Origin: Chloroflexota bacterium
Lineage (GTDB): Bacteria; Chloroflexota; UBA11872; VXOZ01
Assembly: GCA_965220175.1 (NCBI GenBank)
Contig: OZ244814.1
Span: 2,439,045-2,503,044, forward strand
Reading direction: 5' to 3'
Length of the DNA: 64,000 nt
The translations under genes and the position numbers were made by a program. This document shows, piece after piece, positions 4,884-56,929 of the stretch. Each line of letters begins with the position of its first letter. Within the stretch, counting starts at the first letter, position 1. The notes under the pieces were generated by a model. The model saw nothing but the letters and a program-made list of their open reading frames with translations. It made no database searches and was not told where the DNA came from.

Positions 4884-4886
4884 ATC

Positions 4887-25690: not shown

Positions 25691-25712
25691 CGTGCCGGAT
25701 CTTGAACAGAAC

Positions 25713-37995: not shown

Positions 37996-38013
37996 TTGTG
38001 ATATGTTTCACGT
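37996..38013 (+). promoter_or_regulatory. Rex-box-like operator TTGTGATATGTTTCACGT about 60 nt upstream of rex
   Basis: Matches the Rex consensus TTGTGAA-N4-TTCACAA at 6/6 in the left arm and 4/6 in the right arm. Confidence 0.4.
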
Positions 38014-38075
38014 GGCAATTGCCTCTGACATGAGGAGCGCCAATGTCTGGGTCACCGAGGGGAAAAGCGCCGCAG

Positions 38076-38738
38076 ATGGCGATCAGACGCCTCTCCATGT
38101 ACTATCGTACATTGGCTTCCCTGCGGGAACAGGGCGTTGAGAGTGTTTCCTCAGAGCACCTTTCAGCCTTGACCGGATCTACGGCGGCTCAGGTCCGACG
38201 CGACCTGGCGTACTTCGGCAATTTCGGCCGTCGCGGCGTGGGCTACGAAGTGCATTCGCTGCAGGCGCACATGCAGGAAATCTTGGGTATCGGCGAAGGA
38301 TGGCCCATGGCGCTCGTGGGTGTCGGCAACTTGGGCTCCGCGTTACTGGCGTACGATGGGTTTCCCCGGCAGGGATTCCGCATCGTCGAGGCTTTTGATT
38401 CAGATCCTCGCCGCGTTGGCACGGTGATCCGTGACGTGGTCGTAAAGCCGATGGATCAGATCAGGGAGACCATTCACACCCGCCATATTGTGATGGCGCT
38501 CTTGGCTGTTCCCGCAAAGGCCGCGCAAGCCGTTACCGAGCAGCTAATCGATGCCGGTGTACGCTGCCTGCTGAATTTCGCGCCCGTGACGCTCAGGGTG
38601 CCCTCCCACGTCCACCTGGCCAGTGTCGATCTTTCAATCGAAGTTGAATACCTCTCATATGTATTGAGGGAGAGTGTGGCAGAGGGTGACACGGCCGGTG
38701 GCGTTCGCCCTGATGAATCGACCGTTTTATCTCGCTAG
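38076..38738 (+). CDS. rex: Redox-sensing transcriptional repressor Rex (NADH/NAD+ sensor)
   Basis: N-terminal wHTH (RRLSMYYR, HLSALTGSTAAQVRRDLAYFG) and a Rossmann NAD(H) domain (ALVGVGNLGSALL). The ORF is open from 38043; the conserved start is MAIRRLS at 38076. Confidence 0.85.
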   Translation: MAIRRLSMYYRTLASLREQGVESVSSEHLSALTGSTAAQVRRDLAYFGNFGRRGVGYEVHSLQAHMQEILGIGEGWPMALVGVGNLGSALLAYDGFPRQGFRIVEAFDSDPRRVGTVIRDVVVKPMDQIRETIHTRHIVMALLAVPAKAAQAVTEQLIDAGVRCLLNFAPVTLRVPSHVHLASVDLSIEVEYLSYVLRESVAEGDTAGGVRPDESTVLSR

Positions 38739-38837: not shown

Positions 38838-39215
38838 ATGGAGTACTACGTCGGATACATTCCGTTTCTTGTGACATTTGTGGCGGCATCCGCTTTTGGG
38901 ATTGGCTCACTTGCTTTGGCTTCGGTACTCCGACCGAAATTCCGATCCGGTCCCCTGCGCACGGTTCCGTACGAGTCTGGGATCGGACCTAGCGGCGTCG
39001 TCGGCGATACGCGCGGCCGTCATGGCATTCATTTCTATATGGTGGCGATCGTCTATGTCGTTTTCGACCTTGAGCTTGCCTTTCTCTTTCCTTGGGCCGT
39101 GATTGTGGGGTCGCTGGGACTATTCGGCCTCATTGAGATGGCAATCTTCATCGCAATCTTGCTTGTGGGCTACATATATGCATGGAAGAAAGGAGCATTC
39201 GATTGGGGGCTATAG
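38838..39215 (+). CDS. nuoA: NADH-quinone oxidoreductase subunit A
   Basis: 125 aa, three TM helices, conserved YESGI and VFDLE motifs. Confidence 0.9.
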
Positions 39216-39754
39216 AAGATACGCTAGCGCTGCCCGCCGCCGGGCAGAAGACGGGTGCTTCAGGCTTCGTGCTTGCGTCCGCCGATCAAATTCTGAATTG
39301 GGGTAGAGCAAACGCCCTGTGGCCGATGACGTTCGGCCTTGCGTGTTGCGCAATCGAGATGATGGCGGTCTGGGCGTCGCACTATGATGCGGACCGCTTT
39401 GGCATGGCGTTCCGGGCGACTCCCCGACAATGCGACGTCATGATTGTGGCGGGCACGGTCACGAAGAAAATGGCGCCGATCATACGCAACCTCTGGGAAC
39501 AGATGGCACGTCCGTGCTGGGTGATTGCCCACGGCAATTGCGCTACCTGCGGCGGGCCGTATCGTTCCTATAGCGTGCTGCAAGGGGTGGACCTCGCGGT
39601 TCCTGTAGACATTTACGTACCGGGGTGTCCGCCGCGGCCCGAGGCGCTGCTTGAAGGTCTCATGTTGTTGCAGCAGAAGATCAAACAGGGTGAGTGGGCC
39701 GGTTCGGAAGAGGCGCTGCTCACCGCACGCGCGGCTGCTGCCTCAGAGGAGTAG
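39182..39754 (+). CDS. nuoB: NADH-quinone oxidoreductase subunit B (N2 cluster subunit); start may instead be the TTG at 39203, which has an AGGAG RBS
   Basis: Motifs [18 protein letters not shown] and GCPPRPE. Confidence 0.9.
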
Positions 39755-39762
39755 AGATATCC

Positions 39763-40236
39763 GTGAGAATTCCTCCGTCGGTTGCGGCTGAGACAGTCCA
39801 AGAGCGCATACAGTCGATCTTGAGTGACAAGGTGATCGCGGCAAACTCTCTCCGCGACTATCTGACGATCGAGATCGCACCCGAGGATCTGCTGGAGATT
39901 GCGTCGGTGCTCCGAGATGACCCGGAATTGCGCTTCAATTACTTTGGCGATGTAACGGCGGTGCATTGGCCGGGCGAAGCGCGGGAACTCGAAGTGGTGT
40001 ATCATCTGCGCTCGATTCCGGCAAACCGCAGAATTCGCGTCAAGACCCGTATCGCTGCTGACGAATCGCTGGAATCCATGACCCAGGTATGGCCGGGCGC
40101 CGACTGGCCGGAACGAGAAGTCTACGATCTCATGGGGGTGAATTTCGTCAATCATCCCGATCTCCGACGCATTCTAATGGAAGAGGACTACCAGTATCAC
40201 CCATTGCGCAAGGACTTTCCGCGCGAAGGGCTGTGA
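39763..40236 (+). CDS. nuoC: NADH-quinone oxidoreductase subunit C (30 kDa)
   Basis: GTG start with a GAGGAG RBS. The ORF track extends in frame to 39694. Conserved ERE.YD..G motif. Confidence 0.85.
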   Translation: MRIPPSVAAETVQERIQSILSDKVIAANSLRDYLTIEIAPEDLLEIASVLRDDPELRFNYFGDVTAVHWPGEARELEVVYHLRSIPANRRIRVKTRIAADESLESMTQVWPGADWPEREVYDLMGVNFVNHPDLRRILMEEDYQYHPLRKDFPREGL

Positions 40237-40275
40237 CCATAGCAGACACTGCTTTGAGGGTAGTGAGAACCGCAC

Positions 40276-41481
40276 ATGGCAACTGTTGAAATCGAACGCA
40301 TTGCAGGCGAAGACGATTCCAGCCTGATCCTGAACATGGGGCCGCAGCACCCCAGTACTCACGGCGTGCTGCGTGTTGTCTTGAAGATGGACGGCGAATA
40401 CATCGAAGAAGCCGTTCCCATCATCGGCTACCTGCATCGCGGCACGGAGAAAATCGCCGAAAACGAAACGTATACCCAGATCCTGGGCTACACCGACCGC
40501 ATGGACTACACCGCTGCCGCTTCCAGCAACCTCGGCTGGTTGGTTGCCGTCGAAACCCTCGCGGATATTGAAGTGCCGGAACGCGCACAGTGGCTGCGCT
40601 GTATTGTCGGTGAACTGGGACGGCTGGCGGGCCACTTCGTCTGGATAGCCACCCACGCGCTGGACATTGGGGCAATGTCGGTCTTCCTCTATGCCTTCCG
40701 CGCGCGCGAGCGTGTCCTGGAACTCTTTGAGGAGCTCTGCGGCGCCCGCATGACCCACAGTGTGATGCGTCCCGGCGGATTCCTGGAGGAACCCCGCGAA
40801 CCCTTCTACGAGAAGCTAGAGAACTCTTTGGACTACTTCCTCAAGGAGATCAACCAGTTTGACAAATTGCTCAGCAAGAATGATCTCTGGTTGGGCCGCA
40901 CGGTGGACGTGGGTGTCATCTCAGGCGACGATGCCATCGCGATGGGGCTCTCCGGCGCTTGCTTGCGCGGCTCGGGGGTGGAGTGGGACATTCGGAAAGC
41001 CGAACCATATGCAGCTTACGACAAGGTGGAGTTTGATATTCCCACGGGTACGGGCAAGGGCGACGTGTTCAGCCGTTACATTCTACGGCTCGAGGAGATG
41101 CGCCAGAGCGTGCGCATCATGCGCCAAGTGATTGAACGCATGCCGCCTGGACCCGTGATGACCGACGACTCCCGTGTTGGCCGACCGGACACGCCGCGCC
41201 TCTATACTGACATGGAAGCGATGATCAACCACTTCTGGATGTACATCCACGGCTTTCCGGTGCAGCGTGGCGAGACCTACGCGGCCATCGAAGCGCCTAA
41301 GGGCGAATTGGGCTTCTATGTGGTAAGCGACGGCAGCGGCAAACCGTATCGCATGCACGTGCGTTCGCCTTCGTTTGTCAATTTGCAGTCGTTGCCCTAC
41401 TTGGTGAAGGGCCGGCTGCTCGCGGATGTTGTATCCGTAATTGGAAGTATTGACATCATTCTTGGTGAGATTGATCGATGA
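40276..41481 (+). CDS. nuoD: NADH-quinone oxidoreductase subunit D (49 kDa)
   Basis: 401 aa with NiFe-hydrogenase large-subunit-like motifs (GPQHPSTHGVLR, HRGTEK). Confidence 0.95.
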   Translation: MATVEIERIAGEDDSSLILNMGPQHPSTHGVLRVVLKMDGEYIEEAVPIIGYLHRGTEKIAENETYTQILGYTDRMDYTAAASSNLGWLVAVETLADIEVPERAQWLRCIVGELGRLAGHFVWIATHALDIGAMSVFLYAFRARERVLELFEELCGARMTHSVMRPGGFLEEPREPFYEKLENSLDYFLKEINQFDKLLSKNDLWLGRTVDVGVISGDDAIAMGLSGACLRGSGVEWDIRKAEPYAAYDKVEFDIPTGTGKGDVFSRYILRLEEMRQSVRIMRQVIERMPPGPVMTDDSRVGRPDTPRLYTDMEAMINHFWMYIHGFPVQRGETYAAIEAPKGELGFYVVSDGSGKPYRMHVRSPSFVNLQSLPYLVKGRLLADVVSVIGSIDIILGEIDR

Positions 41482-41539
41482 TGCGGATGGTGCAGTCCAC
41501 ATGACTTGGCAACCCGCCATGGCATAAGAAGAGGGAACC

Positions 41540-44077
41540 ATGCCGGTAACACTTACAGTTGACGGTCAAGAGGTAACGGTACCTGACGGTTCCACGATCC
41601 TCGATGCCGCGCGCAAGGCAGGCATCTACATTCCTACGCTCTGTTTCGATACGTTCCTCAAGCCGTACGGCGCGTGCCGCATGTGCGTCGTGGAAGTGGA
41701 ACGCGCGCCGAAGCCGCTCTCATCCTGCAACACCATGGCCATGGACGGCATGGTTGTCAGCACGAAGACCGAACCCGTAGTGCATGCCCAGCAGGGCATC
41801 ATGGAAATGACCCTGCAGCATCATCCGCTGGATTGCCCCTATTGCGACAAGTCCGGTGTCTGCGACCTGCAACACACCGCCTACGAGGTAGGTGTGTACC
41901 GCAGTAAGTTGGGAAGCGACAACCCCAACGAACCGGACCACGAACTCAGTCCCCTGATCGAGTGGGACCCGAATCGCTGCATATACTGTGGGAAATGCGT
42001 ACGCGTTTGTGATGAGCGCGTCGGCGACAGTGCGCTGACTTTCAACCTGCGCGGCTTCCATAGCTACATTGGCACCCAGTTTGACGAGCCGCTGGACTGC
42101 GTCGAGTGCGGCGAGTGCATCGAAGTGTGCCCGGTAGGCGCTTTGCTGAGCCGACCCTTCATGCACAGCGGACGTGCATGGCAGGTAAATCAGAGCGAGT
42201 CCATTTGCAACCACTGCAGCGTCGGCTGCCAGATGCACGTTGAGACACGCATGGGTGAGGTATTGCGCACCAAGGCGAACCCGGCGCTCCGCGACCAAAC
42301 ACCGGTCAACACACGCGATCGCGGTCCCGGTGACGGCATGCTCTGCACGCGCGGCCGGTTTGGCTACGACTATATTCACGACGATGCCCGCGTGAAGCAA
42401 CCGCTCATTCGACGAGATGGTGAACTCCAACCGGCCAGCTGGGATGAAGCGCTCACCTTGGTAGCCGATCAGATTGCCGGGGCCAAGACCCAACATGGGC
42501 CGGACGCTGTCGCGGCCATAACGTCCGGGCGTCTCTCAGATGAGGAGAACTACCTGATATCCCGACTCATGCGTGACGTGGTTGGCACGAACAACGTCGA
42601 CAGCACCGAGCGCTGGACGTTTATCCCCACACTGGAGACACTGGGGCCTGCTGCCTTTGATTTCAGTATTGCCCAAATGCAGGATATGGACGCTCTCCTG
42701 GTCGTGGGCGGCGACATTATGGAGAGCCACGACGTGTTGGGCATGCGGATGCGGCAGTGGGTGCGCGACGAAGGCAAGGCGCTCATTCAGGTCAGCAGTC
42801 TGCCAAGCAGACAGGATAGCCGCTTCGCGCAACGCGTGCTGCGCGTGCGACCGGGAACGGAGGAGCATCTTGTGCAAGGCCTCGCCGCCGAGGTCTCCCG
42901 CCGGTCCGGCAATGGCAGTGCGCCGGGAGAGTTGCGCAGCTATCTCCTGGAATCTGCCGCCGAAGATACGGGGATTGAACTGGCGGACTTGAGCGAGACT
43001 GCGACGGAATTGGCCCAAATGGGCAGTGTCGGGATAGTGTGGGCGCTCGGTAACTGGATTGTAGGCAAAGCTGAGAGCGTTGCGCAGGCGGCGGCAAATC
43101 TCGCGCTGGCATTGCCGGAGGCCCAACTATTCCCGCTTGCCGGCAAAGCGAATTCTCGAGGCCTCGCGCAAATGGGCGCGGGAGCCGACATCTTGCCGAA
43201 TTTCCGCAGCGGTAGTGACGCCCAGGCCCGCAGCGCCTTGGGAAGGCAGTGGGACGTGGTGCTGCCGGAATCACCTGGACTTACGCTGGACGACCTCTTG
43301 TCCGGCGCTGAGGTATCGGTGCTCTACATCATTGGAGAAGACCTGGCAGCAAGCGCGCGCAATCGTCAACAGGCGCAAGCACTCCTTGACCGTGCCGGCT
43401 TTGTAGTGGTGCAGGACCTCTTTGTGAACAGCACAGCGGCGGAACACGCCGATGTCGTTTTGCCTGCGGTAAGCTTTGCCGAGAAGACAGGTACGTTCAC
43501 AAATCTGGAAGGCCGGGCGCAGCGCGCACAAGCGGCAATCCCACCGGTTGGCGAAGCCAAAGCCGACTGGCAGATTTTCACCGAACTCGCTCTGCAGTTA
43601 GGAGCGCGGTGGTCCTACAAGAATTCGGACACTGTGGCCCAAGAGATATCTGCGGTATTGGCAGACATTCCGTCAACGCACAGCGCACCGCGCTTTGGCT
43701 GGCAAGAACTGCCGGTACTCCCAAGCGTCAATGGAGACGGCAAGCTGCTCTTGGTGACGCAGGATCATCTGTTCGTGCCCGGCGTTACCGGTCGTTACAG
43801 CAGCAACCTGCGCCGGCTGGTGGAAGAGCCGGTCGCTGAACTACACCCGTCGCAACTCGAGCGCCTTGGCGTCAATGACGGCGATAGAATCGGGATCCAG
43901 GCAAACGGCACGGATCTAACCGTAACGGCGAAAGCAAACAGCCGGCTGGCGGAAGACGTGGTCTATCTCCCCGTCGGCTTCCCGGATGCGCCGGTGGGAG
44001 CGCTGTTGGGCGCTGAATCTACTGTCGCGGTATCGGTGCATGCTGCCGCTGTAACTTCCGAAACCAAGTCGACGTAG
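41540..44077 (+). CDS. nuoG: NADH-quinone oxidoreductase subunit G-like (2Fe-2S + 4Fe-4S + molybdopterin-oxidoreductase fold), directly after nuoD with no nuoE or nuoF
   Basis: N-terminal 2Fe-2S (CRMCVVEVE), a His/Cys 4Fe-4S cluster (HPLDCPYCDKSGVCDLQ), and further Cys clusters. 845 aa. Confidence 0.8.
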   Translation: MPVTLTVDGQEVTVPDGSTILDAARKAGIYIPTLCFDTFLKPYGACRMCVVEVERAPKPLSSCNTMAMDGMVVSTKTEPVVHAQQGIMEMTLQHHPLDCPYCDKSGVCDLQHTAYEVGVYRSKLGSDNPNEPDHELSPLIEWDPNRCIYCGKCVRVCDERVGDSALTFNLRGFHSYIGTQFDEPLDCVECGECIEVCPVGALLSRPFMHSGRAWQVNQSESICNHCSVGCQMHVETRMGEVLRTKANPALRDQTPVNTRDRGPGDGMLCTRGRFGYDYIHDDARVKQPLIRRDGELQPASWDEALTLVADQIAGAKTQHGPDAVAAITSGRLSDEENYLISRLMRDVVGTNNVDSTERWTFIPTLETLGPAAFDFSIAQMQDMDALLVVGGDIMESHDVLGMRMRQWVRDEGKALIQVSSLPSRQDSRFAQRVLRVRPGTEEHLVQGLAAEVSRRSGNGSAPGELRSYLLESAAEDTGIELADLSETATELAQMGSVGIVWALGNWIVGKAESVAQAAANLALALPEAQLFPLAGKANSRGLAQMGAGADILPNFRSGSDAQARSALGRQWDVVLPESPGLTLDDLLSGAEVSVLYIIGEDLAASARNRQQAQALLDRAGFVVVQDLFVNSTAAEHADVVLPAVSFAEKTGTFTNLEGRAQRAQAAIPPVGEAKADWQIFTELALQLGARWSYKNSDTVAQEISAVLADIPSTHSAPRFGWQELPVLPSVNGDGKLLLVTQDHLFVPGVTGRYSSNLRRLVEEPVAELHPSQLERLGVNDGDRIGIQANGTDLTVTAKANSRLAEDVVYLPVGFPDAPVGALLGAESTVAVSVHAAAVTSETKST

Positions 44078-44097
44078 CCGCGAACCAGGAATCACAC

Positions 44098-45117
44098 ATG
44101 ACAGAGTTTGTCATCGCGGTCATTTTCAAGTCCATCATTGCATTTATCGTGCCATTGCTCGTGGTGCCGCCGCTCATTTGGGGCGAGCGCCGCCTCCTTG
44201 GTCGCATTCAGTCCCGTGTCGGTCCCAATCGCGTTGGACCTTTCGGGGCGTTTCAAACGCTTGCCGATGCCGTCAAACTCCTGGGCAAAGAAGACATGAT
44301 CCCGGCGGGAGCGGACCGCGTTCTCTTCATTCTGGCCCCGTTCCTGCTCCTGGTACCGTCCTTTATGGCGTGGTCGGTAGTGCCGGTTGGCACCGAACTG
44401 CACATATTCGGGCGCGTAATCGGTCTCTATGCCACAGATCTCAACGTAGGCGTCCTCTACATCGTGGCGCTCACCTCTGTGGCGGTATACGGCATAGTCA
44501 TGGCCGGCTGGGCGTCGAATAGCAAATACGCACTGCTGGGAAGCCTGCGTTCGAGCGCGCAGATGATCAGCTATGAAATCATGCTTGGTCTGGCCCTAGT
44601 CGGTGTGGTTGTGCTCGCAGGATCGCTGTCTCTGCCGGAAATCGTGCGGCAGCAGCAAGTTCCCTACGCCATTCCCTTGGTAATCGGCGCCTTTGTCTTC
44701 GTCTGCGCCGCGCTGGCGGAAACGAACCGCGCGCCGTTTGACCTGCCGGAAGCGGAAACGGAGCTCGTTTCCGGGTATCACGTTGAGTATTCCGGCTGGC
44801 GTTTTTCGTTCTTCTTCTTGTCGGAGTATGCCAACATGCTGTTGGCGTCATTCCTGGTAAGTGCCGTATTCTTAGGCGGCGGCTGGCCGGCACAGTTCTT
44901 CGAACCTTACATCGGCCATCTACTCACAACCTTGCTGGCCGTGGGCATTATGATGTCCAAGGTATTCCTCTTTCTCTTCATCTACATATGGATTCGTGCC
45001 ACGTTACCGCGCTTTCGCTACGACCAAATGATGAACTTTTGCTGGAAAGTCCTCTTGCCGCTGGGACTGCTCAATTTGGCAGTCGCCACGGTGCTGAAAC
45101 TTACGGTCTACGCTTGA
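44098..45117 (+). CDS. nuoH: NADH-quinone oxidoreductase subunit H
   Basis: 339 aa, polytopic, with motifs GERRLLGRIQSRVGPN, APFDLPEAE.EL and GY..EYSG. Confidence 0.95.
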   Translation: MTEFVIAVIFKSIIAFIVPLLVVPPLIWGERRLLGRIQSRVGPNRVGPFGAFQTLADAVKLLGKEDMIPAGADRVLFILAPFLLLVPSFMAWSVVPVGTELHIFGRVIGLYATDLNVGVLYIVALTSVAVYGIVMAGWASNSKYALLGSLRSSAQMISYEIMLGLALVGVVVLAGSLSLPEIVRQQQVPYAIPLVIGAFVFVCAALAETNRAPFDLPEAETELVSGYHVEYSGWRFSFFFLSEYANMLLASFLVSAVFLGGGWPAQFFEPYIGHLLTTLLAVGIMMSKVFLFLFIYIWIRATLPRFRYDQMMNFCWKVLLPLGLLNLAVATVLKLTVYA

Positions 45118-45142
45118 GAGAGACGTTGGGAGAATAGTTACA

Positions 45143-45601
45143 ATGAGTTTTCGCTTCGACTCGCTGTTACCCATCGCGAGAGGACTAAGCGTGACCCTGC
45201 GTGAGTTCTTTCGCCGACCGGTGACGATTCGCTATCCGGAGCAGAAGAGAGAGCTCTCTTCGATCTTTCGCGGCGCCGTGGGCATGCGCCGCAGACCCGA
45301 CGGCAGGCCCAAGTGCGTGGGATGCGGGCTCTGCGAGACCGCGTGTCCAAATGAGTGCATAACCATCACGACGGAATCGAATCCGGCGCAACCGACGGAA
45401 AAGGTAGTAACGTCGTACACGTTGGATGTCGGTCGCTGTCTCTTTTGCAGCCTCTGTGTTGAAGCATGCCCGGTGGAGGCGCTGGAGATGACAAACGCAT
45501 ACGATTTTTCAACTGACGACCGCAGCACGCTCATTTACGACGTAGACCGCCTGATGGACTTGGTGGATAAACAGGGCAAGGAGGTGTCTACGCTTGAGTA
45601 G
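45143..45601 (+). CDS. nuoI: NADH-quinone oxidoreductase subunit I (2x[4Fe-4S] ferredoxin)
   Basis: Two motifs, CVGCGLCETACP and CLFCSLCVEACP. Confidence 0.95.
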   Translation: MSFRFDSLLPIARGLSVTLREFFRRPVTIRYPEQKRELSSIFRGAVGMRRRPDGRPKCVGCGLCETACPNECITITTESNPAQPTEKVVTSYTLDVGRCLFCSLCVEACPVEALEMTNAYDFSTDDRSTLIYDVDRLMDLVDKQGKEVSTLE

Positions 45602-46217
45602 CGAGACTCTGCTTACCCTGATCTTTGCGTATTTCGCGCTGGCGAGCGTGGTGTTCGCCGTGCTCGTCATCATGCTGCGCAATCCGGTCCAGTGTGCGTT
45701 GTCGCTGGTAGGCGTGGTGTTCCATCTGGCGGGGATCTTCATTCTGCTGCGTGCCGAGTTTCTGGCCGCGGCGCACATAATCATCTATGCCGGCGCCATC
45801 ATCGTGCTCTTCTTGTTCACCATGATGCTGCTGAATGTCGGCGCGGTGGAGCGGGTGCGCCAGTTTCATGTCCAAGCGCCCCTCGCGATTGTGATAGGCG
45901 CCATCCTCTTTCTTGAGTTTATCGTTCTAACAGGAGCTACCATCACCGTTGGCGCCCAGGGGCCCCATTCACCAGCCTGGGTCGCCGGACAGGGCGGCAA
46001 CGTGCAAGCATTAGGGCAAGTGCTCTTTCGCGACTATTTGCTGCCGTTCGAGGTGGCCTCGGTACTCTTGACGGCCGCAGTAGTGGGCGCCATTGTCTTG
46101 GCGAGACAGAGACCGCGGCGCCCGCGCTCATCCTCACAAATGGGCGTCGGTGAGTGGATGGCGGAGCGGTTTGAAAAGTCGAAAGCACAAGAACAAGGGC
46201 CGGCGGAGCCGCGCTGA
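45594..46217 (+). CDS. nuoJ: NADH-quinone oxidoreductase subunit J
   Basis: Five TM helices with conserved AHIIIYAGAI..LFLF.MML; 8-nt overlap with nuoI. Confidence 0.88.
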   Translation: MSSETLLTLIFAYFALASVVFAVLVIMLRNPVQCALSLVGVVFHLAGIFILLRAEFLAAAHIIIYAGAIIVLFLFTMMLLNVGAVERVRQFHVQAPLAIVIGAILFLEFIVLTGATITVGAQGPHSPAWVAGQGGNVQALGQVLFRDYLLPFEVASVLLTAAVVGAIVLARQRPRRPRSSSQMGVGEWMAERFEKSKAQEQGPAEPR

Positions 46218-46234
46218 GGAGATATGCGACTCAT

Positions 46235-46543
46235 ATGATTATCCCAGCCTTAGAGTACTACTTGGTGCTGGGTGCGGCACTCTTCATCATCGGTTTACTC
46301 GGTGTGCTGGTACGGCGCAACCTGCTCATAGTATTTATGTCAATTGAGTTGATTCTGCTTGGGGCCAACGTAACTTTCGTGGGGTTTGCCGTCGCTCTAA
46401 ACAATATGCTGGGGCAGGTGTTCGTGATCTTTTCGCTGACGGTAGCCGCCGCCGAGGCTGCGGTTGGGCTGGCTATCATTGTGGCGCTTTCCCGCCATCG
46501 GGATACGCTCAACGTAGATGAAATCAACACACTTAAGGGTTAA
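46235..46543 (+). CDS. nuoK: NADH-quinone oxidoreductase subunit K
   Basis: 102 aa, three TM helices, E-containing motif (AAAEAAVGLAI). Confidence 0.9.
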   Translation: MIIPALEYYLVLGAALFIIGLLGVLVRRNLLIVFMSIELILLGANVTFVGFAVALNNMLGQVFVIFSLTVAAAEAAVGLAIIVALSRHRDTLNVDEINTLKG

Positions 46544-46558
46544 GGGCACTTAGCAATA

Positions 46559-48466
46559 ATGGCCGACGTTGCCTGGCTCGTTCCTCTCCTGCCATTCATC
46601 GCGTTTGCGATCAACGGCGTCTTTGGACGCAAGTATCTAAAGAAACACACCGGCCTCATCGCGAATGCCGGCGTGTTGGGCGCACTGGTCGTGAGTGTGG
46701 CCCTATTCGTCACCCAATTGGACCACGCAGCACCCGAGTCGGTCGTACTGTGGACGTGGGCGGTTTCCGGTGACTTCGCGCTGGATATTGCGCTGCGCGT
46801 TGATGCCCTCACGCTCGTAATGCTGCTCGTGGTCACGAGCGTTTCCTTTATGGTCCATGTCTATTCAATTGGGTACATGGACCACGATCCCGGCTTCTGG
46901 CGTTTCTTCACCTACCTGCCGCTGTTTGTCTTCGCAATGATCATGCTCGTGATGGCGAACAACCTGCTGGTCTTGTTCGTCTTCTGGGAAGCCGTCGGGT
47001 TGTGCTCGTATCTCTTGATAGGGTTCTGGTTTGAGCGTCAATCAGCTTCCGCAGCCGCCGTAAAAGCCTTCCTGACGAACCGCATCGGAGACGTTGGCTT
47101 CCTGATTGGGCTCTTGCTGGCGTGGTATGTCTTTGGGACGCTGGACTATGACGAAATCTTTGCCCAAGCGCCCGCCATTGCGGCAGCCACGCCCGGCATG
47201 CTCACGCTGATTTGTCTCATGCTCTTCATTGGGGCCATGGGCAAGTCCGCACAGTTTCCGCTGCATGTGTGGTTGCCCGACGCCATGGAGGGCCCAACTC
47301 CGGTCAGCGCCCTGATCCACGCGGCCACGATGGTGACGGCGGGCGTCTACATGGTGGCGCGGTTTAACCCGCTCTATGTGCTGTCAGCGAACGCCATGGC
47401 GGTCGTAGCGATTGTCGGCGCGTTTACCGCTCTCTTTGCCGCGACCATCGGCCTGGCGCAGAACGACATCAAGCGTGTTCTCGCCTATTCCACTGTGAGC
47501 CAACTTGGACTCATGTTCATGGCGCTCGGCGTTGGGGCATTCGCCGCCGCCATCTTCCACCTCGCTACCCATGCCTTCTTCAAGGGTTTGTTGTTCCTGG
47601 GCTCCGGCTCGGTCATTCACGGCACGGACGAAGAGCAGGACATGCAGCGCATGGGCGGCCTCTTTGGCAAAATGCCGGTTACCGGCTCGACCTACATCAT
47701 TGGCGGTTTGGCCTTGTCCGGCATCATCCCCTTGGCGGGATTCTGGAGTAAGGACGAATTGCTTGGGGCCACGCTGCTCGCCGGTGGATTCGGCTACCTG
47801 CTGTATGCTTTAGGCGCTTTGGCCTCACTCCTAACAGCCATCTACACATTCCGCATGATATTCCTGACGTTCTTTGGCAAGACCCGTATGGAAACGGAGC
47901 GATTTTCACGCGTTCACGAGTCTCCGCTCGTAATGACAATCCCGCTCATTGTATTGGCCGGAGGCGCGGCGTTGGCCGGTTTTGTGGGTGTTCCTCCCGA
48001 ACACGGGCTGATCCACAACTACCTGCACGACACGTTCCTGGCAGCAGAACTGGCCGGCTTGGTGCATAAACCATCAACGGCGTTTGTGCTTACCGTGATG
48101 GCTGTTTCGACTGTGATCGCACTCTTTGGCATCCTTGTTGCCTACAGCATATATATGCGCAGATCGCCCGCACCCGAAGCCGTCGCTGGCAGGGCGGGGC
48201 CCATCCATACGCTATTGGTTAATAAGTACTTCCTGGACGACTTCTACGATACGGTCCTGGCGGGGGGAACCAAGGGCGTTGGCTGGCTCTTTGCCTGGTT
48301 TGACCTGAATATCGTCGACGGCATTGTGAATCTCATCGGCTTGGTAGTCAGTGGCGTTGGCGGTGGACTCCGCCGCATGCAGACCGGCCGCATGGAGAAC
48401 TATGCCTTTAGCGTTGTCTTGGGCACAGCGCTCGTTCTCGCCTTCTATATCATCATGGTGCGTTGA
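46559..48466 (+). CDS. nuoL: NADH-quinone oxidoreductase subunit L (antiporter-like, with long horizontal helix)
   Basis: 635 aa with Mrp-antiporter-like motifs (WLPDAMEGPTPVSALIHAATMVTAGVY). Confidence 0.95.
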   Translation: MADVAWLVPLLPFIAFAINGVFGRKYLKKHTGLIANAGVLGALVVSVALFVTQLDHAAPESVVLWTWAVSGDFALDIALRVDALTLVMLLVVTSVSFMVHVYSIGYMDHDPGFWRFFTYLPLFVFAMIMLVMANNLLVLFVFWEAVGLCSYLLIGFWFERQSASAAAVKAFLTNRIGDVGFLIGLLLAWYVFGTLDYDEIFAQAPAIAAATPGMLTLICLMLFIGAMGKSAQFPLHVWLPDAMEGPTPVSALIHAATMVTAGVYMVARFNPLYVLSANAMAVVAIVGAFTALFAATIGLAQNDIKRVLAYSTVSQLGLMFMALGVGAFAAAIFHLATHAFFKGLLFLGSGSVIHGTDEEQDMQRMGGLFGKMPVTGSTYIIGGLALSGIIPLAGFWSKDELLGATLLAGGFGYLLYALGALASLLTAIYTFRMIFLTFFGKTRMETERFSRVHESPLVMTIPLIVLAGGAALAGFVGVPPEHGLIHNYLHDTFLAAELAGLVHKPSTAFVLTVMAVSTVIALFGILVAYSIYMRRSPAPEAVAGRAGPIHTLLVNKYFLDDFYDTVLAGGTKGVGWLFAWFDLNIVDGIVNLIGLVVSGVGGGLRRMQTGRMENYAFSVVLGTALVLAFYIIMVR

Positions 48467-48476
48467 GGTAGCTGCG

Positions 48477-49979
48477 GTGGAGTCAATACCCATTCTCTCG
48501 CTCATTCTCTGGTTGCCGCTGGTCGCAGCCGCAATCGTGCTCTTCCTGCCGGAGCGCCGCGCCATGTTCGCGGTGGCGCTGGCGGGAACTGTGCTGTCGC
48601 TTGTGCTGAGTGTGGTTGTGTGGCTGAGCTTCGAATCCGGTGGCGGCATGCAGTTTCAAGAGAGCTTTGACTGGCTGCCGTCGCTTGGGATCAAGTACGC
48701 CCTTGGGGTGGACGGCATCAGCCTTTTGATGGTGCTCCTGAATACGTTCCTCTTCTTCCTCTGCATCGTCTACGCGTGGGCATCCGTGCACGACCGGGTG
48801 AAAGAGTATCTCTTCACCATGCTCCTCTTGGAAGTGGGCATAACGGGTGTGTTCCTGGCGTTGGATTTTGTGCTCTTCTACGTGTTCTGGGAAATCATGC
48901 TCATCCCCATGTACGTGTTGATTGGCGTGTGGGGCGGCGAAAGGCGGGTCTACGCAACGGTCAAGTTCGTGCTCTATACGCTCTTCGGCAGCTTGCTCAT
49001 GCTGGTGGCGATCTTGGCGCTCTATTTCGTGCACGGCAATACCACAGGCATCTACACGTTTGACATTCTCGAGCTCACGCAGGGCACCTATGGCGAGCGG
49101 TTCCAGCTTTGGGCCTTCCTGGCATTTTTCTTGGCCTTTGCGATCAAAGTACCCATGATACCCTTCCACACCTGGCTGCCGGACGCGCACGTGGAGGCGC
49201 CGACAACCGGCAGCGTCATCCTGGCGGGCATCCTGCTCAAGATGGGCGGGTACGGCTTCATTCGCTTCAGCCTGCCGCTGTTTCCCGATGCGAGCCAACT
49301 GGCGCAGACGGCAATCCTTGTCCTCTCGGTCATAGCGATTCTCTATGGCGCACTGGTCGCCCTCATGCAGACTGACCTGAAGAAGCTCATCGCCTATTCA
49401 TCAGTCAGCCACATGGGATTCGTAACGCTGGGCATCTTCTCATTTACGCAACAAGGACTCGACGGGGCCATGATGCAAATGTTCAGCCACGGACTGGTTA
49501 CGGGCGCCTTGTTCCTCTGTGTAGGACAGCTTTACGAGCGCACCCATGACCGGCTGATAGCAAACCTGGGCGGACTGGCCCACCGTTGGCCGGTATATGC
49601 GACTCTCCTGCTGTTCTTCTCGCTCGCCTCAATCGGCTTGCCGGGATTGTCGGGATTTGTCGGCGAATTCATGGTGTTGCTCGGCGCTTTCATGACCGGC
49701 ACGCGCATCTTCGGCGTGCTGGCCGTGCTTGGCATCATACTTTCCGCCGCGTACATGCTGTGGATGTACTGGCGGGTCATGCTTGGCTCCCTGAAAGAGG
49801 CTCACAGCCGCCTTGAGGATCTCACCAGGCTGGAGACTGCGGTGCTCGTGGCCTTGGCGGTTGTAGTCGTATGGGCCGGTGTGCAGCCACAACTATTTGT
49901 TGGACTTTTCACCGCCGACACCGGCCAAATCATGCAATCACTTGCGGATTCCGGAGTTACGAGCGCACTGATTCGTTGA
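48477..49979 (+). CDS. nuoM: NADH-quinone oxidoreductase subunit M
   Basis: GTG start 11 nt after the nuoL stop (ORF track open from 48351 in frame). Motifs FHTWLPDAHVEAPT and SHMG. Confidence 0.9.
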   Translation: MESIPILSLILWLPLVAAAIVLFLPERRAMFAVALAGTVLSLVLSVVVWLSFESGGGMQFQESFDWLPSLGIKYALGVDGISLLMVLLNTFLFFLCIVYAWASVHDRVKEYLFTMLLLEVGITGVFLALDFVLFYVFWEIMLIPMYVLIGVWGGERRVYATVKFVLYTLFGSLLMLVAILALYFVHGNTTGIYTFDILELTQGTYGERFQLWAFLAFFLAFAIKVPMIPFHTWLPDAHVEAPTTGSVILAGILLKMGGYGFIRFSLPLFPDASQLAQTAILVLSVIAILYGALVALMQTDLKKLIAYSSVSHMGFVTLGIFSFTQQGLDGAMMQMFSHGLVTGALFLCVGQLYERTHDRLIANLGGLAHRWPVYATLLLFFSLASIGLPGLSGFVGEFMVLLGAFMTGTRIFGVLAVLGIILSAAYMLWMYWRVMLGSLKEAHSRLEDLTRLETAVLVALAVVVVWAGVQPQLFVGLFTADTGQIMQSLADSGVTSALIR

Positions 49980-50014
49980 CCCTTAGCACTTGGTAGGCAC
50001 GTAAGGAACGGCCC

Positions 50015-51490
50015 GTGCAAACTGAAGACCTTCTGAGCATACTGCCTGAAATCATCATCACGCTGGTGGGAGCCGCCGTCCTGATGGTTGACGCCTTTGG
50101 CGGCCGGCGGACCCATCGTGGACTGCTGGGCTTGATCGTGGCTGGCAGCGTGGTTGTCATCCTCGCCAGCATAGTCTTGCGCGCCGACGGCGGTACGGCC
50201 TTTGGCGGTATGGTGCTGACCGACGGCTATGCCGTCTTCTTCAAAGTGCTCTTCATCGCTGTTGCCGCCCTCAGCATTGTGCTGGCGTTTGCCCAATCGC
50301 GAGATGTGCCTTTCGCTGAACTCTCGGCACTCATTCTGTTTGCCACGGTTGGCATGCTCCTGCTTGGAGCGACAGGCGACCTCATCACGCTCTATCTCGG
50401 CGTGGAACTGACTTCTATTCCCGTATACGTGCTGGTGGCGATCAAGCGCGATCGTTTTCGTGCGACGGAAGGCGCTCTCAAGTATTTCCTGCTTGGCGCG
50501 TTTGCCTCCGGCGTCTTGCTGTACGGCATTGCCTGGCTCTTTGGGCTCACCGGCACGACAAACTTGGCTGACATTTCAATCTATGTGCAGAGCCAAGGCG
50601 CGGACAATCCGTGGTTCTTACTGGGTCTCGGCCTTCTTCTGGTCGGCCTGGCATTCAAAGTTGCGGCGGTGCCGTTTCACATGTGGACGCCGGACGCGTA
50701 CCAAGGAGCGCCCACCCCATCCACGGCCTTCCTGGCGGCCGGAGCTAAGATTGGTGCCATGGCGGCCCTTCTGCGCGTGGTCGTGCACGGTCTGGAGCCG
50801 TGGCAAGACATGGTATTGCCTATCGTCATAGCCATTGCGGTAGCCAGCATGATCGTCGGCAACTTTGTCGCCATTTGGCAGCGAGATGTGAAGCGCCTGC
50901 TGGCATATTCGTCTATCGCACACACCGGCTATATGCTGGTGGGCATCGCGGTCGTGCACGCACAGTCGGAAGCCGGCGGTCTCATGCGCGACGCGGTGGC
51001 GGCGGTGATGTTCTACGCCGTAGTTTATGCCTTAATGACGCTCGGCGCCTTTGCCGTGACGTTCGCGGTGGAGCGCCGGACCGACGGCACGGACTTGGAG
51101 AACTTCCAAAACCTGGGGCGCAGTTCGCCTCTGATGGCTGTAGCCATGGCGATCTTCATGATTTCGCTCACCGGCATCCCGCCGGCCGCGGGCTTTTTCG
51201 GAAAGCTCTACCTGTTGCAGGTGGCCGTCAACGGCGGCCTGACGTGGGTAGCAGTCGTCTTGGTGCTTACAAGCACGGTGTCGGCATACTACTACCTGCG
51301 CGTAGTCGTTAACATGTACATGGTAGACATTCAGCCGCGCCTGCTGCCTGTTCCCGCATCCACGGCTATTGGCGCAGTGGTTGCCATCGGCATGATCGGC
51401 ACCCTGGTGCTTGGCATCTATCCCGCCGGGGCCGTTGAATGGGCGCAAGCCGCCTTCGAAGAGGCCGGCAAACTAGCAATCACCCCCTAG
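50015..51490 (+). CDS. nuoN: NADH-quinone oxidoreductase subunit N
   Basis: 491 aa with motifs FHMWTPDAYQGAP and YSSIAHTGYM. Confidence 0.9.
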   Translation: MQTEDLLSILPEIIITLVGAAVLMVDAFGGRRTHRGLLGLIVAGSVVVILASIVLRADGGTAFGGMVLTDGYAVFFKVLFIAVAALSIVLAFAQSRDVPFAELSALILFATVGMLLLGATGDLITLYLGVELTSIPVYVLVAIKRDRFRATEGALKYFLLGAFASGVLLYGIAWLFGLTGTTNLADISIYVQSQGADNPWFLLGLGLLLVGLAFKVAAVPFHMWTPDAYQGAPTPSTAFLAAGAKIGAMAALLRVVVHGLEPWQDMVLPIVIAIAVASMIVGNFVAIWQRDVKRLLAYSSIAHTGYMLVGIAVVHAQSEAGGLMRDAVAAVMFYAVVYALMTLGAFAVTFAVERRTDGTDLENFQNLGRSSPLMAVAMAIFMISLTGIPPAAGFFGKLYLLQVAVNGGLTWVAVVLVLTSTVSAYYYLRVVVNMYMVDIQPRLLPVPASTAIGAVVAIGMIGTLVLGIYPAGAVEWAQAAFEEAGKLAITP

Positions 51491-51581: not shown

Positions 51582-51656
51582 GCCCCCATAGCTCAGTGGA
51601 TAGAGCACTGGCCTCCGGAGCCAGGAGCGGGCGTTCGAGTCGCCCTGGGGGTACCA
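51582..51656 (+). tRNA. tRNA-Arg (anticodon CCG)
   Basis: Cloverleaf read by eye: acceptor GCCCCCA/TGGGGGT, D-arm GCTCAGTGGATAGAGC, anticodon stem CTGGC/GCCAG with loop CTCCGGA, T-arm GGGCGTTCGAGTCGCCC, and an encoded CCA. Confidence 0.8.
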
Positions 51657-51766: not shown

Positions 51767-52411
51767 ATGGTGAAGGCTACCGTACCCGGGCAAATCATCA
51801 TCTTGAATGGAACGCCGCGGGCAGGCAAGTCTTCCATCGCCAAAGAAATCTTGGACACCTTCGCCGGCGTGTGGATCAACCTTGGCGTCGACGGCATTAA
51901 GCGATTGACTTCGCAGCGCTACAGTCCAGGCATTGGATTGCGCCCCGGCGGAGAGTTGTCGGATACTATAGAGCCCCTCGTTCCCGTGTTGTATGCGGCT
52001 ATGTACGAGTCGATTGCGGCCCACAGCCGGCTGGGCATAAACGTCGTTGTGGACGTCGGACATCACGACGCCTACTCCGTGCCACGAGGGATCCTCTTCG
52101 ACAGCGCGCGACGCTTGCGTGATCTCCTAGTCCTGTTCGTGGGAGTTCGTTGCCCGATTGAGGTCATTGTCGAGCGACGACAAAAGACTTGGGATCCCAA
52201 TCGCGGGCCTGACGAGCACATCCTCCGCTGGCAGCGTGAAGTACACTCGCCCGGAATTTATGATCTTGAGGTTGACACGTCACAACTCACTCCTCTGGAC
52301 TGTGCCGACGCCATTCGACAACGCCTCGAGAGCGGCCCTGAATCTACGGCATTCAAACGACTCGCCGAGATGAACCTGAAGCAGGGCGGGAGAGCCGGCG
52401 AGGCGCCATAG
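51767..52411 (+). CDS. Chloramphenicol-phosphotransferase-like (CPT) P-loop kinase family protein
   Basis: The N-terminus [31 protein letters not shown] closely parallels the CPT signature MIILNGGSSAGKS...WLAFGVD. 214 aa. Confidence 0.7.
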
Positions 52412-53193: not shown

Positions 53194-55761
53194 ATGACCG
53201 GCGCCGTCGTCAGTCGCCTTGCCCTTCGCGCGCTGCAGCGGCGCGTTCTGCAAAGCGTACTCTTCGTCGTTAGCATTCTGGCCGGCGTCGCGTTAGTCGT
53301 AGGCGTGGACGTAGCGGCGGATTCGGCACGGCGTGCTTTCTCCCTGAGCCTTGCAAGCCTGCAAGGCAATGCGACCCATGAAATCGTGAGCGGCCCCAGT
53401 GGGGTCCCTTCCTCGCTGTATCGCAGCTTACGCGTTGATCTCGGAGTGCGCACTGCCGCGCCGGTAATCCAGGGCACCGTCCGTGTCGGCAGCGACGACA
53501 TCGCGCTAACGCTGCAGGGCATTGATCCCTTCGCCGAGGCGCAGATGCGCATGTACCTCGCCGGCGTTGCGGGTCCCCCGGCTAGAGGCGGACAGGCTCA
53601 GTCGCTGCTTAGACTCCTTGCGGATCCTGACACAGTTTTGATAGCGCGGTCCCTTGCCAACCGGCTTGGCCTGGAACCCGGAGATCAGTTCGTCCTGCGC
53701 GCGGCGCGCCTGCAGCGAACCGTCACGTTCGTAGGCACGATCGAACCCTGGAATGACGTGAGCGCCCAGGCGCTTGCCTCTCTCATTGTCGCGGACATTA
53801 GCACGGCGCAGGAGGTCGTAGGCAGTCCGGGCGTGCTGACACGCATTGACCTCATCCTTACAGACCCCCAAGAGGCTGCCCAAATCCGGGCGTTCTTACC
53901 TCCCGGCATAGTCTTGAGACCGGTCGAGAGCAGCCGGAGCAATTTGGAACAACTGAGCAACAGCTTCACGCTCAATTTGCAGGCGCTCAGTCTGCTCGCG
54001 CTGGTGGTCGGCGTTTTTCTTGTTTACAACATTATGTCATTTAGTGTTGTACAGCGGCGCAATCAGATCGGCATGCTGCGCGCAATTGGCGCCACGCGCC
54101 GCCAAGTCTTCGCCGGTATCATCTTGGAGGCGGTCGTTCTTGGCATGGCTGGCACACTGCTCGGCTTGGCGGCGGGCTACGTACTTGGAGGCTTTCTGGT
54201 AGAGGCGGTAACCAGGACCATCACCGATCTCTACTATCGGGTTGAAGTCCAAACGCTAACGCTTTCCTCCTTTGCCGTAGCCAAGGGAGTGGTTACAGGG
54301 CTGGTTGCCAGCGTTGGAGCCGCCCTCATTCCCGCGCTGAACGCAACCCGCATTACACCCGCCAGCGCTTTGCGTAGCGCCGATGCCGAGCAGGCGGCGC
54401 AAACGCGAGCCGACCTGGCTGCTGTCGCCGGCATCATTCTTATGGCTTGCGGCCTGGTCTTGACACAGTTTCAAGCGCAGAGCCTCGTTTTCGGTTTTGG
54501 CGCCCTCTTCTTGGTGCTGATGGGAAGCGTGCTCATTACGCCTATCGCGTTGTCTCTTGCCATGCGCGGCGCGCGGCCTCTCCTCGCTCGCGCGATCGGC
54601 ACACTCGGCAACATCGCACCGCGGTCGATTGATCGCTCGCTGAGCCGGTCCGGCGTGGCGGTAGCGGCCCTTTCGCTCTCAGTCAGTGTGATTGTGGGCG
54701 TGAGTGTAATGATCGCGAGTTTCAGAGGCACGGTCACAACGTGGGTTGATGGCGCATTAACCGCGGATGTCTTCATCTCTGCGCCGGCAAGCGGCCTGCT
54801 GGAAACGGTCAATCTTGATTCAACACTGGCAGAGCAACTGCAGAGTCTGCCGGGCGTCGCGCAGGTACTCACGGCCCGCGACGTGCCCGTGCTGGCGCCT
54901 GACTATCCCAATCTGCCACCGGTCAATCTTGTCGCCGTGAGTGCGGACCTGGCGGAACGCGCTCGCCGCTATGTCTGGCTCTCCGTTCCCGAGGAGGAAG
55001 TGTGGGACGCCATGCAGAATGGCGCAATCGTCGTAACGGAGTCTTTCGCCTACCGCCGCCGTATTAGTCCGGATTCGAGTGCGCTCACCCTACTCACCGA
55101 TAGCGGACCGCGAAGCTTTCCCATCGCTGGTGTCTACCATCACTATGGCACCGATCAAGGCATTGTGCTCATGGCGGATATAGTTTACCGGAGACACTTC
55201 GCCGACCCGTGGGTCTCATCCTTCGCTCTTTTCCTCACGCCCGAGGCGCAGAGCGCAAGCGTAGTCGAAAGTGTGCGCCGGCTTGCCTACGCCCGAGGAC
55301 TCAACGTGCAAAGCACCGGCGAACTGCGTAAGCAAGTGTTCACGATTTTCGACCGCGCCTTTAACATCACCGCGGCTCTGCGCAGTCTGGCTGCCATCGT
55401 TGCCTTCATCGGTGTCCTGAGCGCACTCATGGCTTTACAGCTCGATCAGAAGCGCACCCTGGGCACAATGCGGGCCCTCGGCCTCACCGCAGGCCAGCTC
55501 TGGCGGCTAACGTTGCTGGAAACTGGTCTCATGGGCCTTGCTGCCGGTCTCTTTGCGTTGCCAATAGGCCTGCTGCTCGCCAAGATGCTCATCGATGTGA
55601 TAAACGTACGCGCTTTCGGGTGGACGTTCGCCTTTCTCGTGCCCCCAAGATCTCTGCTGCAAGCGGTGCTCATCGCCATAGCGGCCGCATTGCTGGCAGG
55701 AGCGTACCCGGCATGGCGCGTTGCTCATCTCGCCCCGGCTGAGGCCATTCGCAATGAATAG
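53194..55761 (+). CDS. ABC-transporter permease with two FtsX domains (MacB/AttFG-like, about 8-10 TM)
   Basis: 855 aa with two repeated FtsX-type four-TM modules, each preceded by a large extracytoplasmic loop. It starts 4 nt after the ATPase stop. Confidence 0.85.
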
Positions 55762-56929
55762 AACTTATGTCAATTACAAGCTACTCGTATCCGGACTGCT
55801 TGTGTTCACGGTCGCGCTCCTGGTATTCGGAGTCGCGCGGCTTTCAGCGCGTCCGGCGGAACCGATCGGCGCGGCAACCGTGATAGTTCCGTGGGAATCC
55901 GATGCTAACGCCTTTGCGCGCGCCGCAGGGCCCTGGGAGTGGGAGTTTCCCCGAGACCATGGGCCGCATCCCGCCTTTCAAACAGAATGGTGGTATTACA
56001 CGGGCAACCTGACGACATCAGAGGGACGGCGCTTCGGCTACCAGTTCACGATATTCCGCCGCGCCTTGACCCCTGAAATGCGCGACTCGTCATCGGAATG
56101 GTACACGAATCAAGTGTACTTAGCTCACTTTACGGTAAGTGACATTGAGAGTGAAGCATTCTATCAGGACGAGCGGTTTGGCCGGGGCGCCGTCGGCCTC
56201 GCCGGAGCGGTGGTGTCACCACGCTTGCGCGTCTGGATCGAGGATTGGACGGTGCTTGCCGTGGATGACTCCGTGTCGCAATTGGTAATTCACGCACAAG
56301 CAGACGACTTTGCCATTGATCTTGTGCTGAATCCGGTAAAGTCGCCTGCGTTGCATGGCAATGACGGTCTGAGCCAAAAGGGGCCTGAGTCCGGCAATGC
56401 CAGCTACTACTATTCGCTGACCCGTCTCGAAACGCGGGGCAAAATTGCAATTGACGGCGAGGAGTTTGCAGTAAACGGCCTCAGTTGGATGGACCGTGAG
56501 TTTGGTTCCAGCGCCCTCAGCGCTGAAGCCGTAGGCTGGGACTGGTTTGCTATCCACCTCGACGACGGCCGGGACATCATGGTGGGGCAGATTCGCCGCC
56601 AGGACGGCAGTCTCGAACCGCTATTCGGCGGGCTGTTGGTCTCCCCGGAAGGAATGACTCGCTACCTCTCAGCGGAAGAGTTCACCATTACGCCGCTTGG
56701 CAGTTGGCACAGCGAGAACAGCGGCGCTACGTATCCCGCGGGGTGGGAGATCGTCCTGGAATTGGGAGAAACATCGCTCCGCCTTGCGTTGGAGCCGTTG
56801 CTCGCGGATCAAGAGGTCCTGGCAAATGTGACCTACTGGGAAGGCGCCGTGCGCGTCGGTGGGGACGCTCAAGGCTACGGCTACGCGGAACTCACCGGCT
56901 ACGCCCAACCTTTGAGGGGTCTAATCTAG
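55754..56929 (+). CDS. AttH/CrtC-family lipocalin-like protein (hydroxyneurosporene-synthase-like domain) with N-terminal signal anchor
   Basis: Motifs FPRDHGPHPAFQTEWWYYTGNL and GRRFGYQFTIFR are typical of AttH-like proteins. The start overlaps the permease stop by 8 nt (ORF open from 55721). Confidence 0.7.
   Translation: MNRTYVNYKLLVSGLLVFTVALLVFGVARLSARPAEPIGAATVIVPWESDANAFARAAGPWEWEFPRDHGPHPAFQTEWWYYTGNLTTSEGRRFGYQFTIFRRALTPEMRDSSSEWYTNQVYLAHFTVSDIESEAFYQDERFGRGAVGLAGAVVSPRLRVWIEDWTVLAVDDSVSQLVIHAQADDFAIDLVLNPVKSPALHGNDGLSQKGPESGNASYYYSLTRLETRGKIAIDGEEFAVNGLSWMDREFGSSALSAEAVGWDWFAIHLDDGRDIMVGQIRRQDGSLEPLFGGLLVSPEGMTRYLSAEEFTITPLGSWHSENSGATYPAGWEIVLELGETSLRLALEPLLADQEVLANVTYWEGAVRVGGDAQGYGYAELTGYAQPLRGLI

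Follow-up and report, generated by a model that had tools for sequence, protein, structure and literature searches.

A 64,000-nt stretch of the genome of a Chloroflexota bacterium (contig OZ244814.1 of assembly GCA_965220175.1, positions 2,439,045 to 2,503,044; hereafter the window) carries an operon for complex I, the NADH:quinone oxidoreductase, in which nuoG stands in its usual place behind nuoD and nuoE and nuoF are absent. The host probably belongs to an uncultured, marine host-associated lineage of this phylum. The operon is preceded by a gene for the redox-sensing repressor Rex, and the whole arrangement is deeply conserved. We consider it likely, if well short of certain, that the operon belongs to a conventional NADH:quinone oxidoreductase, with nuoE and nuoF encoded elsewhere in the genome.

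Matches to Pfam and NCBIfam models identify twelve consecutive plus-strand genes at 38838–51490 (coordinates refer to the window) as nuoA, B, C, D, G, H, I, J, K, L, M and N. The subunits of the quinone module (Q-module) all match their family models: nuoB (39203–39754; PF01058; TIGR01957, 225 bits), nuoC (39763–40236; PF00329, TIGR01961), nuoD (40276–41481; TIGR01962, 524 bits, above the cut-off) and nuoI (45143–45601; TIGR01971, 132 bits). The ligands of cluster N2 are present in NuoB (CC55/56 and GC149PP), NuoI has two CxxCxxCxxxC motifs that provide the ligands of N6a/b, and NuoD is devoid of the CxxC pairs of a NiFe site. The membrane subunits are encoded by intact open reading frames (ORFs) with strong family matches, namely nuoA (38838–39215; PF00507, 106 bits), nuoH (44098–45117; PF00146, 390 bits), nuoJ (45594–46217; PF00499), nuoK (46235–46543; PF00420), nuoL (46559–48466; TIGR01974, 745 bits), nuoM (48477–49979; TIGR01972, 621 bits) and nuoN (50015–51490; TIGR01770, 429 bits). 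Three starts were revised slightly by comparison with relatives: the ORFs of nuoB, nuoC and nuoM open at 39182, 39694 and 48351, and the likely starts are a TTG at 39203, a GTG at 39763 and a GTG at 48477, respectively. None of the twelve subunits is disrupted, and all evolve under purifying selection.

Between nuoD and nuoG lies a 58-nt spacer (41482–41539) that contains no ORF and has room neither for nuoE and nuoF nor for nuoX and nuoY; a Shine–Dalgarno-like AGAGGG directly precedes the ATG of nuoG within it. The nuoG-like gene itself (41540–44077, plus strand) encodes 845 residues with five iron–sulfur cluster sites and a degenerate molybdopterin domain. A preceding sequence-only reading had described the order nuoABCD-G-HIJKLMN, the 58-nt separation that leaves no room for nuoE or nuoF, and a full-length NuoG-like gene with 2Fe-2S, 4Fe-4S and molybdopterin folds; the family assignments, the gene boundaries and the domain set of the product bear out all three.

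Neither a NuoE nor a NuoF (Complex1_51K) domain was detected by Pfam in any large ORF of the window, and six-frame tblastn searches with Thermus Nqo1 and Nqo2 returned no NuoE or NuoF homologue in any frame. The two Thermus sequences may contain errors and serve as probes only. With these probes, NuoF and NuoE were recovered in 20 other loci with E-values down to 1e-129, and in one of these, L089, the genes matched were the same as those independently marked by the Pfam families Complex1_51K and 2Fe-2S_thioredx. Among the products of the window’s large ORFs are the chaperones and proteases Lon, DnaK, GrpE, DnaJ and ClpB, besides transport proteins, cell-wall and sugar-modifying enzymes and similar proteins; the Pfam scan of these ORFs revealed no obvious ferredoxin, flavodoxin or other redox partner. 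The L089 locus (1–12460) is a ‘2M’ complex I operon with two nuoM copies and a fused nuoCD, whose NADH module (N-module) is interrupted by unrelated genes. Those for a TIR-domain protein and an S9 peptidase, together with several small ORFs, separate nuoE from nuoF, and a gene for a HicB-like antitoxin separates nuoF from nuoG.

An exact look-up of the window’s NuoG returned no record. We scanned species-representative genomes for NuoG and found the same protein, at 84–95% identity, in 14 metagenome-assembled genomes, all labelled Chloroflexota; several of these are closed chromosomes of 3.3–3.7 Mb, one stems from the coral Porites lutea and one from a sponge. The order rex-nuoA-B-C-D-G-H...N is present in 14 of 14, as far as each contig extends. 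Two ENA genomes share it, as does a JGI contig from a more distant relative, whose NuoG is 72% identical; together these make 17 relatives. With the sister clades described below, the arrangement lacking nuoE and nuoF is kept in more than 20 independent assemblies. Since it recurs in so many, several of them closed chromosomes, the order is a stable trait of the lineage, the product of neither chance nor misassembly. The representative of the NuoB cluster of the same clade (P0122, 92% identical to the window’s NuoB) is recorded on a contig of 6,708,388 bp, about twice the size of the other chromosomes of the clade, which could reflect a larger relative or a concatenated assembly.

The protein searches, in which the best 120 hits were listed, place the next-closest NuoG proteins at 38–41% identity, in at least about 35 clusters among the matches listed, many of them on contigs of 2–3.4 Mb. 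The operons of these two sister clades read rex-nuoA-C-D-G-H...N. They, too, are devoid of nuoE and nuoF, and tblastn detected no nuoB between nuoA and nuoC (L003, 7841–10004; L004 and L005, 7723–9927; L006, 8015–9825; L086 and L087, 10001–10651); in one sister clade the end of nuoD overlaps nuoG by 4 nt. To our knowledge, NuoB, which carries cluster N2, is part of every enzyme of the complex I superfamily, so in the sister clades it must be encoded elsewhere. A search with the window’s NuoB indeed found it in two genomes taken to be of the sister-clade type. In the contig of this type that was read, nuoB is a lone gene among unrelated neighbors, with no nuoE or nuoF nearby; next to it are molybdenum cofactor biosynthesis genes (MoaE, MoaD-like, MoCF_biosynth) and, in divergent orientation, a gene for a RACo-like Fer2 protein. 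Dispersal of nuo genes over the chromosome is thereby demonstrated for the wider lineage, and a gene missing from the operon is therefore not necessarily missing from the genome. The third-best NuoB match (P0124), considered as an intermediate bacterial relative, proved to be a real, intron-containing NDUFS7 gene of Mytilus and was set aside. Likewise, P0098 and L059 were discarded as close canonical relatives, their subunits being only about 48% identical to those of the window and no closer than those of the sister clades. Among the related NuoG proteins whose context was examined, only those of the window clade and the sister clades are without adjacent nuoE and nuoF.

The rex gene (38043–38738, plus strand; 231 residues with the Pfam domains Put_DNA-bind_N and CoA_binding) is the gene directly before nuoA in both the window clade and the sister clades. 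Thirty nucleotides upstream of rex, at −48, the palindrome TTGTGATATGTTTCACGT (37996–38013) resembles a Rex operator (ROP). It matches the consensus TTGTGAANNNNTTCACAA with three mismatches, and as 1.6 such matches are expected per window, the match alone is not significant. The same sequence occurs at the same position in 15 of the 17 relatives, however, with the remaining two differing at one spacer base, and it lies inside a conserved block of about 70 nt, the rest of the spacer having diverged beyond alignment. Among the sister-clade loci, a perfect TTGTGAAATCGTTCACAA stands between rex and nuoA in L003, the operator core upstream of rex is perfect in L004 and L005, and L006 has a site upstream of rex with one mismatch; overall, a Rex protein is accompanied by a conserved predicted ROP-type operator, with perfect or near-perfect sites at three of four sister loci. 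Scans for promoter and terminator consensus sequences gave nothing above background. In the distant JGI relative L091, a 78-residue ORF without a family match (475–711) sits between rex and nuoA, where the window has only a 99-nt spacer.

Rex is a sensor of the NADH/NAD+ ratio, which in Streptomyces avermitilis binds the nuoA1 promoter and directly represses nuoA1-N1; sites with two or three mismatches are functional in that organism (PMC5355995). Such control makes most sense if the enzyme oxidizes NADH. The conserved rex-nuo unit would most simply form a feedback loop, with excess NADH inducing the enzyme that removes it.

The NuoG-like protein displays the domains Fer2_4, NADH-G_4Fe-4S_3, Fer4_Nqo3, Molybdop_Fe4S4, Molybdopterin and Molydop_binding. 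Against the NuoG model TIGR01973 it reaches 449 bits, just below the cut-off of 470, as compared with 314 bits against the model for the formate dehydrogenase alpha subunit, TIGR01591, whose cut-off is 666. All nineteen cysteines and the one histidine that coordinate five clusters (N1b, N5, two ferredoxin-type 4Fe-4S clusters and N7) are conserved: C35/46/49/63, H95/C99/102/108, C147/150/153/157, C187/190/193/197 and C223/226/230/269. Thus, the ligands of N1b, N4 and N5, as found in canonical 14-subunit enzymes, are complete, and those of N7 and of a fifth 4Fe-4S site are present in addition. Within the clade, the N-terminal iron–sulfur domain is 97% identical versus 82% for the rest of the protein. 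The Thermus- and Escherichia coli-type NuoG and the aligned Anaerolineales and Omnitrophota proteins have only one of the two ferredoxin-type clusters. A five-cluster NuoG is nevertheless also encoded in the nuoABCDEFGH operon of Geobacter sulfurreducens (L092) and in a JGI operon with a fused NuoE-NuoF (L093), so that the additional cluster was rejected as a hallmark of enzymes devoid of NuoE and NuoF. These are the two related five-cluster nuoG genes whose context was checked, and both adjoin nuoE and nuoF. In L093 (4519–7904), a DRTGG-domain gene, a HATPase_c-domain gene and one unknown gene stand between nuoD and the fused gene; the fused protein has 597 residues and additional 4Fe-4S domains, and the arrangement recalls the accessory genes of bifurcating hydrogenases.

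Among solved structures, the best matches to the protein are alpha subunits of NAD-dependent formate dehydrogenases (370 and 350 bits), ahead of Mycolicibacterium NuoG (283 bits) and Thermus NuoG (235 bits). The catalytic residues of these dehydrogenases are replaced, however. The metal ligand Cys or Sec and the following His, which read CARL[C/U]H in every true formate dehydrogenase aligned (several with an in-frame TGA), have become Thr-Phe in the sequence TERWTF, and the catalytic Arg of PLRGQNNVQ corresponds to Ala in PLAGKANSR. These positions differ again between the window clade and the sister clades. In a neighbor-joining tree, a crude method whose result agrees with the active-site motifs, the window clade and the sister clades group together inside the non-catalytic NuoG proteins of Geobacter, Nitrospirota and Anaerolineales, apart from the formate dehydrogenases. 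A comparison of this kind, with formate dehydrogenases and hydrogenases as the other possible affiliations, had been proposed in the sequence-only reading, and it assigns the protein to non-catalytic NuoG and to neither of the others. From these residues, the molybdenum site is expected to be dead and to support no catalysis. Several of the NuoG-like genes of about 33% identity (L021–L025, L030, L045) are interrupted by one in-frame TGA where the metal ligand is expected (CARLUH, around residue 350 of the match); those with the TGA are selenocysteine formate dehydrogenases. NuoE/F-like genes adjoin those of L023, L025, L030 and L045 according to the probe matches, and L023 also has a Rex gene and an operator-like site upstream.

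How, then, might electrons enter this enzyme? The sequence-only reading had posed two options, nuoE and nuoF encoded in trans or a different input module docking onto NuoG; this was the right pair to weigh, and the evidence leans toward the former, short of proof. The operon encodes NuoG, its one contribution to the NADH module of a proton-pumping complex I, alongside the quinone module and a complete membrane arm; it would be derepressed by Rex, through putative binding to the operator, when the NADH/NAD+ ratio rises. NuoF, with the NADH site and flavin mononucleotide (FMN), and NuoE, with its 2Fe-2S cluster N1a, would be supplied from a separate locus and dock onto NuoG, and electrons would pass from NADH via FMN and N3 in NuoF, N1b, N4 and N5 in NuoG, N6a/b in NuoI and N2 in NuoB to quinone. 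We favor a separate locus because nuoB is scattered in the sister clades, because rex and a conserved operator lie directly upstream, because the N-terminal domain of NuoG is so strongly conserved, because this NuoG is placed among those that work with NuoE and NuoF, and because N-module genes outside the operon are familiar from the literature: nuoE, nuoF and nuoG are found ‘quite often’ outside the nuo operon (PMC3144371), and N-module genes lie outside the main nuo operon in Chloroflexi (PMC3150298, PMC5736913). Several observations weigh against such a locus. No NuoE or NuoF is encoded within the 38 kb upstream or the 12 kb downstream of the operon in the window, and in the 17 relatives the Nqo1 and Nqo2 probes match nothing in the roughly 10 kb that flank the operon on each side. 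No Rex operator precedes the sister clade’s lone nuoB. Furthermore, nuoE, nuoF and nuoG usually move or vanish together, so that a nuoG kept while its partners leave is unusual, and the order is old, being common to clades with about 40% NuoG identity, which is also expected after a donor switch in the distant past.

The main rival is a genuine 12-subunit complex I in a genome devoid of nuoE and nuoF, with a low-potential carrier such as ferredoxin, flavodoxin or another protein that feeds NuoG directly; we regard this as possible and rather unlikely. It would account for the lack of nuoE and nuoF in or near the operon at every one of more than 20 loci and for an order that is ancient and stable across deep clades, and a complex I with NuoG and without NuoE and NuoF has precedent (PMC3144371, PMC6682613). 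By analogy with the structure of FdsA, moreover, the fifth 4Fe-4S site would connect the N7-like cluster with the main chain, which could open a second entry point. On the other hand, the Campylobacterota examples have nuoX and nuoY in the slot of nuoE and nuoF, and the 58-nt gap here holds no gene; no obvious redox partner appears among the large ORFs of the 64-kb window; the conserved control by Rex argues for NADH; a five-cluster NuoG is found together with NuoE and NuoF as well; the dispersed nuoB warns against equating operon with genome; and the Chloroflexi of sponges are described as aerobic heterotrophs (PMC6306507), which would presumably need an outlet for NADH. In its most far-reaching form, this alternative posits a Rex-regulated 12-subunit complex I in aerobic heterotrophs, with no substitutes of the NuoX/NuoY type, electrons entering directly through the five-cluster NuoG, perhaps over a wire on the N7 side, and a second independent origin outside the Campylobacterota; to that full set of propositions we attach a low probability. 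The N7-side wire is disconnected in Escherichia coli and Thermus. Far less probable still is a catalytic role for the NuoG-like subunit as a molybdo- or tungsto-enzyme, for example a formate dehydrogenase, that feeds electrons from its substrate into the complex and makes NuoE and NuoF unnecessary. The ranking of the solved-structure matches, the complete five-cluster wire to the molybdopterin domain and the molybdenum cofactor biosynthesis genes near the lone nuoB of a sister genome speak for it. The replaced Cys/Sec-His and Arg, at positions where even the window clade and the sister clades disagree, bring it close to refutation, and the protein’s position in the non-catalytic group of the tree points the same way. 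That the order results from an assembly error, a recent deletion or a pseudogenized operon has next to no probability and is refuted by conservation: it recurs in 14 species representatives, among which are several closed long-read chromosomes, and again in ENA and JGI assemblies that are independent of these, with all ORFs intact and 84–100% identical to those of relatives, and no point in support of such an artefact was found.

If nuoE and nuoF do lie elsewhere, the lineage adds a further dispersed nuo gene set to those known, one distinguished by a tight and conserved rex-nuo linkage and by sister lineages that scatter nuoB. It would also be a caution for automated pathway calls, as scoring complex I by operon content would mislabel abundant sponge- and coral-associated Chloroflexota. 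If the two genes are truly absent, this would be a second, independently evolved complex I with NuoG and without an NADH site. Such an enzyme would bear on the assembly of the N-module in evolution, for which the acquisition of NuoG first and of NuoE and NuoF later has been suggested (PMC3144371), and would raise the question of which donors feed respiration in the symbionts.

The remainder of the window holds other recognizable loci. A heat-shock and proteostasis cluster on the minus strand (9003–18250) comprises lon (15773–18250), dnaK (13797–15767), grpE (13131–13766), dnaJ (12033–13067) and clpB (9003–11555). RNA family models match the window once, at a tRNA-Arg(CCG) gene (51582–51656) that lies 92 nt beyond nuoN; 3′ of this gene lie a chloramphenicol-phosphotransferase-like gene (51767–52411) and then a MacB-type ABC transporter pair. 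A two-domain CrtC-like protein (hydroxyneurosporene synthase N-terminal lipocalin; 55721–56929) adjoins ABC transporter genes. ORFs of about 270–480 residues without a Pfam match occur at 963–2060, 24626–26744, 30973–32406 and 58448–59663, and some of them may be spurious overlaps on the strand opposite real genes.

Like canonical 14-gene operons such as the nqo operon of Thermus and nuoABCDEFGHIJKLMN of Geobacter sulfurreducens, the window operon has the eleven genes of the Q-module and the membrane (P-) module together with nuoG, in the usual order and with ligands intact, and the Geobacter operon shares a NuoG of the same five-cluster, non-catalytic type; unlike them, it lacks nuoE and nuoF between nuoD and nuoG and has rex joined at its front. 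FdsA is the subunit of formate dehydrogenase FdsABG whose N-terminal domain docks the NuoF- and NuoE-like subunits. The FdsA of Rhodobacter capsulatus (PDB 6tg9) is the best solved-structure match to the window’s NuoG, with the same five iron–sulfur motifs and a very similar N-terminal domain, whereas in the window protein the active-site Cys-His and Arg are replaced and the gene is embedded in a nuo operon. In eleven-subunit complexes of the NDH-1/Fpo type (cyanobacteria, chloroplasts, many anaerobes and methanogens), the NADH-binding subunits are likewise not encoded in the operon, but NuoG is missing as well, whereas the window operon keeps it at full length. The sequence-only reading had summarized the reduced complexes as lacking NuoE, NuoF and NuoG together; this holds for the eleven-subunit enzymes and is incomplete for reduced complexes in general, as the Campylobacterota enzyme keeps NuoG.

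A 12-subunit complex I with a NuoG-like subunit and without NuoE and NuoF occurs in Campylobacter, Helicobacter, Sulfurovum and Nitratiruptor, and the donor proposed for Campylobacter and Helicobacter is a flavodoxin or ferredoxin (PMC3144371, PMC6682613); the dependence on flavodoxin goes back to Weerakoon and Olson 2008, as cited in these two papers. The nuoABCD-XY-GHIJKLMN operons of this type share with the window the retention of nuoG and the absence of nuoE and nuoF. In contrast, the window operon is without nuoX and nuoY, belongs to another phylum and is under predicted Rex control, and its NuoG resembles the Helicobacter-type model only over residues 3–279. Within the phylum, the second cluster of Chloroflexus aurantiacus and the deep-sea Chloroflexi with an 11-gene nuo operon and a separate nuoEFG (PMC3150298, PMC5736913) also have N-module genes apart from the main cluster; there, however, nuoG is outside or missing, while in the window it occupies its canonical slot and only nuoE and nuoF are gone. 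An order with nuoG in place, nuoE and nuoF gone, no substitutes, rex in front and deep conservation in the Chloroflexota appears to be undescribed, as judged from a limited literature search.

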